A DNA stretch of 7,819 bases. Origin: a virus. Its lineage: Duplodnaviria > Heunggongvirae > Uroviricota > Caudoviricetes. The notes under the pieces are model-generated. The model worked only from the letters and a program-made list of their open reading frames with translations. It had not been told where the DNA came from and ran no database searches. Of this stretch, positions 6,916 through 6,973 are shown piece by piece. The position numbers and the translations under genes are program-made. How positions within the stretch are numbered: position 1 is the stretch's first letter; every line of letters starts with the position of its first letter. Location of the stretch: IMG/VR virus record IMGVR_UViG_2547132252_000009. One strand, 5' to 3'.

Positions 6916-6973
6916 TTCTGGTGACATTTGGCGGTATCAGTTTTACTCCGTAACTGCTCTGCCGCCCTTTTTT
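6916..6973 (+). ncRNA. dicF: DicF sRNA homolog (antisense regulator of ftsZ) with intrinsic terminator
   Basis: ttctggtgacatttggcggtatcagttttactccgtaactgctctgccgccc plus a T6 run; matches K-12 DicF as I recall it with about two substitutions. GGCGG/CAGTT...AACTG/GCCGCC stem followed by Ts. Sits between ydfC-like and dicB as in Qin. Confidence 0.8.

Follow-up and report, generated by a model that had tools for sequence, protein, structure and literature searches.

The DNA analyzed here, a 7,819-nt stretch hereafter called the window, carries a small-RNA gene resembling dicF of Escherichia coli K-12, and it raises the question of whether this copy is a genuine DicF and whether the nucleotides in which it departs from the K-12 RNA alter its target pairing, its fold or its processing. 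The original prediction had placed a DicF homolog at 6916–6973, with about two differences from K-12 that could affect pairing with ftsZ and other mRNAs or processing. In an Rfam search, DicF (RF00039) was the only family detected in the whole window, and the match at 6916–6967 on the plus strand was full-length (model positions 1–52 of 52) and reached 76.9 bits where the gathering cut-off is 48 bits (E = 3.7e-16), which substantiated the homology. Nucleotide numbers follow the 53-nt RNA described by Balasubramanian et al., which begins with the first U of UUUCUGG (nt 1; cloning oligonucleotide O-DB349), and the Rfam positions equal this numbering minus one. The mature RNA was best placed at 6915–6967 with a U tail extending to 6973, so that the span first proposed was essentially right.

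6915..6967, plus strand: mature DicF sRNA, 53 nt, equivalent to K-12 nt 1–53 (Rfam match, O-DB349 clone boundary, K-12 alignments)

A chance match was excluded by the E-value together with the synteny (ydfA/ydfB upstream, dicB downstream) and the exact copies present in hundreds of genomes.

The surroundings of the RNA were read from the RefSeq annotation of strain EC4115, whose orthologous locus is 99.9% identical and corresponds to window coordinates after an offset of 2778, and from a comparison with K-12. Over its whole length the window matched, at 99.9% identity, a lambdoid prophage found in O157:H7 genomes of E. coli; this prophage, the source of the window, is integrated at yccA, carries pchA and is of the Sakai Sp4 type. 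In EC4115, the order runs from replication genes through an ECs1072-family gene, which the window contains, a YdaT/Cro-like pair, a DicA-like HTH repressor gene and RelB/RelE to DUF1391 (ydfA-like), ydfB, a 129-aa ORF, an unannotated gap holding DicF, dicB, DUF1482, an exonuclease gene, an integrase gene and yccA, and the order in K-12 Qin is dicC, dicA, ydfA, ydfB, ydfC, DicF, dicB, ydfD. As in the dicBF operon, DicF was found in a lambdoid prophage with ydfA/ydfB on the 5' side, dicB on the 3' side and a DicA/DicC-type immunity region, that is, in the slot between ydfABC-like genes and dicB that it occupies in Qin.

4336..4737, plus strand: dicA-like HTH repressor gene (EC4115 "helix-turn-helix domain-containing protein", position of K-12 dicA)
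5521–5676, plus strand: ydfA-like DUF1391 gene (EC4115 annotation)
5678–5806, plus strand: ydfB (EC4115 annotation)
5818–6207, plus strand: 129-aa hypothetical ORF in place of K-12 ydfC, 72 aa (EC4115 annotation, K-12 comparison)
7153..7341, plus strand: dicB, cell division inhibitor, downstream in the same operon (EC4115 annotation, ORF list)

Considering the role of DicA as the operon repressor (PMC10448788), we infer from homology of position that the repressor encoded at 4336–4737 would control the dicBF operon promoter. The window differs from Qin in having the 129-aa ORF for ydfC and a RelBE module after the repressor gene. This ORF, located just upstream of DicF, was unrelated to ydfC and was also present in O103:H2, and since it stands in place of ydfC, the coding region at the 3' end of the transcript yielding DicF differs from that in K-12. 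The RelB/RelE type II toxin-antitoxin genes (4765–4956 and 4956–5243), lying between the repressor gene and the ydfA-like gene, were absent from K-12 Qin. Minus-strand ORFs of 85 and 110 aa were also observed within 6394–6913, just upstream of DicF, and EC4115 has a 61-aa hypothetical protein annotated at locus 9172–9357, corresponding to window 6394–6579. As a whole, the feature is a genuine, intact DicF copy, namely an already-described gene of a very well-studied pathogen, in an allele that is common in nature.

The alignment with the K-12 Qin locus (94% identity over 392 columns) demonstrated that the K-12 reference sequence used for the original prediction was exact, and that both of the differences named there, G12A and G38A, are present. 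The count of about two was too low: the RNA itself was identical to K-12 DicF at 50 of 53 nt with U1A as a further substitution, and the tract following the stem (6968–6977) was T6A4 in the window vs T5A3 in K-12.

6915, plus strand: U1A substitution at the RNase E-generated 5' end (alignments to K-12)
6926, plus strand: G12A substitution, gacAttt vs K-12 gacGttt (alignments to K-12)
6952, plus strand: G38A substitution, ccgtAactg vs K-12 ccgtGactg (alignments to K-12)

Two of these sites are polymorphic in natural DicF copies: nt 12 can be G, A or T, with an "a" in the Rfam consensus, and G, A and U all occur at nt 38.

The 53-nt architecture of the Qin RNA, consisting of a single-stranded 5' region, a bipartite terminator hairpin and a U tail, was retained in the window copy.

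6915..6929, plus strand: single-stranded 5' pairing region, nt 1–15, with the xylR seed and a candidate pchA anti-SD seed (unpaired probability)
6930..6966, plus strand: bipartite terminator hairpin (Rfam consensus structure, MFE and centroid folds)
6968..6973, plus strand: U tract of six U (five in K-12), intrinsic terminator and Hfq-binding tail (sequence, alignments)

The hairpin is composed of a lower stem (6930–6936/6960–6966, nt 16–22/46–52), an upper stem (6938–6942/6952–6956, nt 24–28/38–42) and a 9-nt loop (6943–6951), and the loop and the 3' arm hold the region that pairs with ftsZ, pykA and manX. The unpaired probability of nt 1–15 was 0.76–1.0 in the window and K-12 alleles alike. 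Neither G12A nor G38A was found to lie outside the seed and structure positions, both being in pairing positions, and G38A was located in the terminator hairpin as anticipated, where it affects the upper-stem pair that closes the loop. The substitution turns U28·G38 into U28-A38 and therefore preserves the structure; the MFE and centroid fold was the same for all four combinations of G12A and G38A and equal to the Rfam consensus, and the fold energy changed from −15.9 kcal/mol in K-12 to −15.5 kcal/mol in the window (z = −2.7 for the window). The DicF terminator went unreported in a simple terminator scan, whose rules do not cover its interrupted stem and large loop.

Nor did the sequence give any sign of impaired processing, as it retained the terminator, an AU-rich junction at the 5' end and the long downstream stem known from Qin. 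RNase E reportedly prefers an AU-rich RN|WUU motif, a preference attributed to Chao et al. 2017. The 5' junction of the window, AAU|AUU (AUUCUGG), presumably fits this motif, and its K-12 counterpart is AAU|UUU (UUUCUGG). On the 3' side, the spacer between DicF and dicB is closed by a long stem.

6974..6997, plus strand: 5' arm of the long stem closing the DicF–dicB spacer (inverted repeat, spacer MFE fold)
7117..7140, plus strand: 3' arm of the same stem (inverted repeat, arm duplex energy)

This inverted repeat of 24 nt is 92% complementary and appeared in the spacer MFE fold of both alleles. Both of the differences between K-12 and the window in its arms turn wobble pairs (U·G, G·U) into Watson-Crick pairs (C-G, G-C), and the arm duplex energy was −33.1 kcal/mol in the window vs −28.3 kcal/mol in K-12. 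A 72-nt DicF species is known to be yielded by RNase III cleavage (PMC9438474), and the spacer stem, judging from its position, is the probable RNase III site giving this species. If anything, the additional U in the tract and the stronger stem would speak against a processing defect. By analogy with K-12, the RNA would be cut from a ydfA-ydfB-ORF-dicF-dicB transcript under the DicA-like repressor, with the 5' end at 6915 generated by RNase E and the 3' end by either the intrinsic terminator (hairpin 6930–6966 plus U6) or RNase III acting in the stem 6974–6997/7117–7140, and DicF would operate together with Hfq as a base-pairing regulator.

DicF represses ftsZ, xylR and pykA by direct pairing, in which its 3' part is used for ftsZ and pykA and its 5' end for xylR (PMC5069750). 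To locate the substitutions in these helices, the duplex registers were anchored on the published compensatory mutants, decoded from the oligonucleotide table of the same study: DicF11 (G7C) with xylRcomp11 (C+18G) defines the pair G7:C+18, DicF23 (G36C) with ftsZcomp23 (C-12G, oligonucleotide O-PR152) defines G36:C-12, and DicF23 with pykAcomp23 (C-11G, oligonucleotide O-DB527) defines G36:C-11 (PMC5069750). The restricted-window predictions reproduced exactly these three pairs; the energies given below are those of hybridization only within the restricted windows, with Hfq and target accessibility outside the model. Unconstrained duplexes of full-length DicF with long targets were unrealistic, containing very large loops, and were replaced by the anchored windows.

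Pairing with ftsZ, the only target that the original prediction had named, was the least affected. The core duplex of nt 25–36 with −1 to −12 (A25–G36), identical to that of K-12 Qin DicF, contains neither G12A nor G38A, and its energy (−16.5/−16.9 kcal/mol) was the same in both alleles; the ftsZ sequence used was that of O157, whose RBS region matches K-12 in the wild-type ftsZ oligonucleotide O-DB504. A register pairing G36 with ftsZ C-17, inferred from O-DB506 (−16.0 vs −14.3 kcal/mol), was void because ftsZcomp23 is C-12G. O-DB506 may be the partner of DicF15 (G38C), and no phenotype is given in the text for DicF15 or DicF8 (PMC5069750).

It was for two other targets, xylR and pykA, that the anticipated change of pairing emerged, by prediction. 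With xylR, K-12 DicF forms a continuous 13-bp helix (nt 5–17 with +8 to +20), and G12A replaces G12:C+13 at its center by an A·C mismatch, changing the energy from −20.3 to −14.5 kcal/mol. With pykA (nt 30–42 region), the loss of G38:C-14 through G38A changed the energy from −23.6 kcal/mol in K-12 to −19.2 kcal/mol in the window. The manX duplex (nt 36–53 region) was −32.7 kcal/mol for K-12 and −33.1 kcal/mol for the window, G38·U+50 becoming an A-U pair. The predicted cost of G12A on xylR was +5.8 kcal/mol, vs +2.6 kcal/mol for G7C, a mutation that relieves xylR regulation in vivo (PMC5069750); that of G38A on pykA was +4.4 kcal/mol, vs +3.8 kcal/mol for G36C, which abolishes pykA repression (PMC5069750). 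The 110-nt regions around the xylR and pykA sites were 100% identical between O157:H7 strains and K-12, and therefore the targets contain no compensating change. Full complementarity to xylR (nt 5–17) and pykA (nt 30–42) fails in the window allele, with one G:C pair lost in each; as this complementarity is a property of the K-12 allele rather than a family criterion, membership in DicF is unaffected. On these predictions, the window allele would repress ftsZ normally and regulate xylR and pykA poorly, and the latter two can still be served by K-12-type copies elsewhere in the genome.

Such coexistence was evident from the distribution of the alleles. Among 5,426 complete E. coli genomes, the exact 67-mer of the window allele (A1/A12/A38/T6A4) was present in 325, at a median of one place per genome, and 290 further genomes carried sequences 95–99% identical to it, while the exact K-12-type 67-mer (U1/G12/G38/T5A3) was found in 3,053. 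The sampled exact matches of the window allele that bore a serotype name were O157:H7, O157 or O145, the last including O145:H28. O157:H7 genomes showed two to four K-12-like places beside the window allele, copy numbers per genome being inferred here from the "places" counts of the similarity search, and both PV15-279 and F6667 of this serotype carried exact copies of the window allele and of the K-12 type. The PV15-279 copy at 1.655 Mb, in a different prophage, was K-12-type in the RNA itself, so that among the EHEC copies compared the window copy is the divergent one. Multiplicity as such is already published: several dicF copies are present in the O157:H7 strains Sakai and EDL933 (PMC5069750), EHEC is stated to have four functional copies (PMC7873438, PMC8139620 and PMC10448788, citing Melson & Kendall 2019), all four orthologues are described as produced under microaerobic conditions (PMC10448788, citing Melson & Kendall 2019), and any one copy, when overproduced, restores narL regulation according to PMC8139620 and PMC7873438. 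The window allele is accordingly not unusual, but fixed and common in O157:H7 and O145:H28 beside canonical copies.

In a six-way alignment of fetched examples, the alleles formed a stepwise series from K-12 (U1/G12/G38/T5A3) through APEC O2:K1:H5, with A12 only, and O103:H2 str. 12009 (A1/A12/G38/T6A4) to the window and O145:H28 (A1/A12/A38/T6A4). The two intermediate alleles share G12A and the same flanks (DUF1391, dicB, DUF1482, exonuclease) with the window, whereas G38A is missing from both, and U1A and the extra U/A from the APEC one as well. The 120 IMG/VR contigs listed had G, A or T at nt 12, and every instance of A38 among them was on the A1/A12/T6A4 background. A scan of species-representative genomes gave eight loci, comprising Escherichia and Shigella, some oddly binned MAGs and one spurious match, so that the exact DicF core was almost confined to Escherichia and Shigella.

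Like the other EHEC copies, the window copy is prophage-borne, and its prophage also encodes the target pchA. DicF activates pchA by binding its CDS at the anti-SD, as stated in a review (PMC7769764), and pchA is ECs_1091 in Sakai (PMC11301168). A PerC-family regulator gene was located on the same prophage, about 18 kb from DicF in EC4115.

26944–27258 of the EC4115 region and 2004–2318 of the O145:H28 RM13514 region: pchA (PerC family, WP_001303878.1), about 18–22 kb from DicF

The orthologous yccA prophage of O145:H28 RM13514 possessed an identical DicF allele and an identical PerC protein, WP_001303878.1; the notion that the O145:H28 prophage lacks pch was rejected, the identical gene lying just past the first flank. 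A local duplex scan of the pch mRNA gave two candidate DicF sites. At the best local one, site A (DicF nt 2–25 with pch +80 to +104), G12A turns a G·U pair into A-U at U+93, and the energy was −25.6 kcal/mol for K-12, −29.0 kcal/mol for G12A alone and −28.1 kcal/mol for the full window allele. At site B (DicF nt 23–51 with pch +16 to +42), the window allele would lose G38:C+28. Site A overlaps pch +89 to +100, the segment with which the SD was predominantly predicted to pair in folds of the full CDS. The SD partner in the pch leader folds varied with the folded window (+20s, +90s, +110s, +150s), and a consistent preference for +90 to +100 was seen only in folds holding the full CDS. That the window allele is tuned towards pchA is speculative, and the presence of A12 in a non-EHEC strain counts further against the idea.

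Taken together, the reading we prefer, to which we assign a probability of roughly three in four, is that the locus is the intact, functional-looking dicF of the yccA/pchA prophage, with fold, ftsZ and manX pairing kept and with predicted weakening on xylR and pykA. The weakening on these two targets is what might be contested, since overexpression can mask losses of 4–6 kcal/mol and the narL complementation argues that the four copies are broadly interchangeable, at least for that target. The same complementation by any overproduced copy (PMC8139620), along with the coexistence of canonical copies in the same genomes, the natural variation at nt 12 (G/A/T) and nt 38 (G/A/U), the occurrence of A12 in non-EHEC strains such as APEC O2:K1:H5 and the unchanged fold, would also be expected if the substitutions were a neutral, hitch-hiking polymorphism that drifted in a redundant paralogue and left it behaving as K-12 DicF on all targets. 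This explanation deserves serious consideration at somewhat below even odds; it is opposed by the location of both G12A and G38A inside genetically validated helices, by predicted costs exceeding those of laboratory point mutants with lost regulation (PMC5069750), and by the targets being without compensating change.

Weakened pairing with xylR and pykA could, on the other hand, reflect adaptive retargeting, whereby the pchA-linked copy lost these targets, kept ftsZ and manX and acquired better pairing with the pchA anti-SD as a more dedicated virulence activator. The gain of site A from G12A, the dominance of +89 to +100 as predicted SD partner with the full CDS, the reported binding of DicF to the pchA CDS at the anti-SD (PMC7769764), the identity of ECs_1091 with pchA (PMC11301168) and the linkage of the identical DicF allele with WP_001303878.1 on the yccA prophage of both O157:H7 and O145:H28 are all consistent with it. 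Nevertheless, we regard it as quite improbable: common descent of the prophage can explain the linkage, A12 predates the EHEC context, being found in APEC, K-12-type DicF already activates pchA per the literature, site B would lose a pair, and the SD partner is ambiguous in shorter transcripts. The related proposal of a functionally diverged paralogue in O157:H7 and O145:H28, uncoupled from xylR and pykA, with ftsZ and manX kept and with pairing improved at the pchA anti-SD (+87 to +104), is in our view unlikely. It is very improbable, finally, that the copy is a decaying, non-functional relic whose substitutions arose under relaxed constraint. The orthologous prophage in EC4115 is indeed degraded, with a frameshifted integrase, a frameshifted terminase and IS insertions, and the window has a 223-nt duplication in a DUF1627 gene; yet all structural elements of DicF are intact, the hairpin change keeps pairing and the two processing-stem changes convert wobble to Watson-Crick pairs, the operon genes including dicB are intact in the EC4115-mapped annotation, the allele is identical across 325 genomes, and the four orthologues are reported as produced in O157:H7 (PMC10448788).

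DicF is a textbook prophage sRNA through which low oxygen and the induction of prophages act on cell division, on sugar metabolism and, in EHEC, on LEE virulence via pchA, and the EHEC dicF copies are usually treated as equivalent. The intact copy that we favor may be new only in the predicted loss of strength on xylR and pykA and a possible gain on pchA. If regulation is indeed poorer for the former or better for the latter, the copies would not be interchangeable, and deletion and complementation studies should name the allele, which would be a useful refinement of a known system and not a new one. Should the copy be a diverged paralogue, the EHEC dicF copies would amount to a small family whose members differ in part of their targets, and not simply to gene dosage.

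Several minor observations were made in addition. Near-identical E. coli-type DicF loci were present in MAGs labelled Veillonella parvula, Collinsella sp. and "Proteobacteria bacterium", and these are most likely mis-binned Escherichia prophage contigs; a Peptostreptococcaceae match to the DicF core was spurious, as it lacked DicF flanks. Within the DUF1627 gene on the minus strand (start 940), window positions 261–672 held a tandem duplication of 223 nt (1.8 copies at 98% identity). The orthologous span was 7,597 nt in EC4115 and in most of the top O157:H7 matches listed, vs 7,819 nt in the window, and the duplication could be strain-specific or an assembly artefact. The DUF1627 ORF of the window stops at 467, giving 157 aa vs 257 aa in EC4115, and the gene is probably disrupted.
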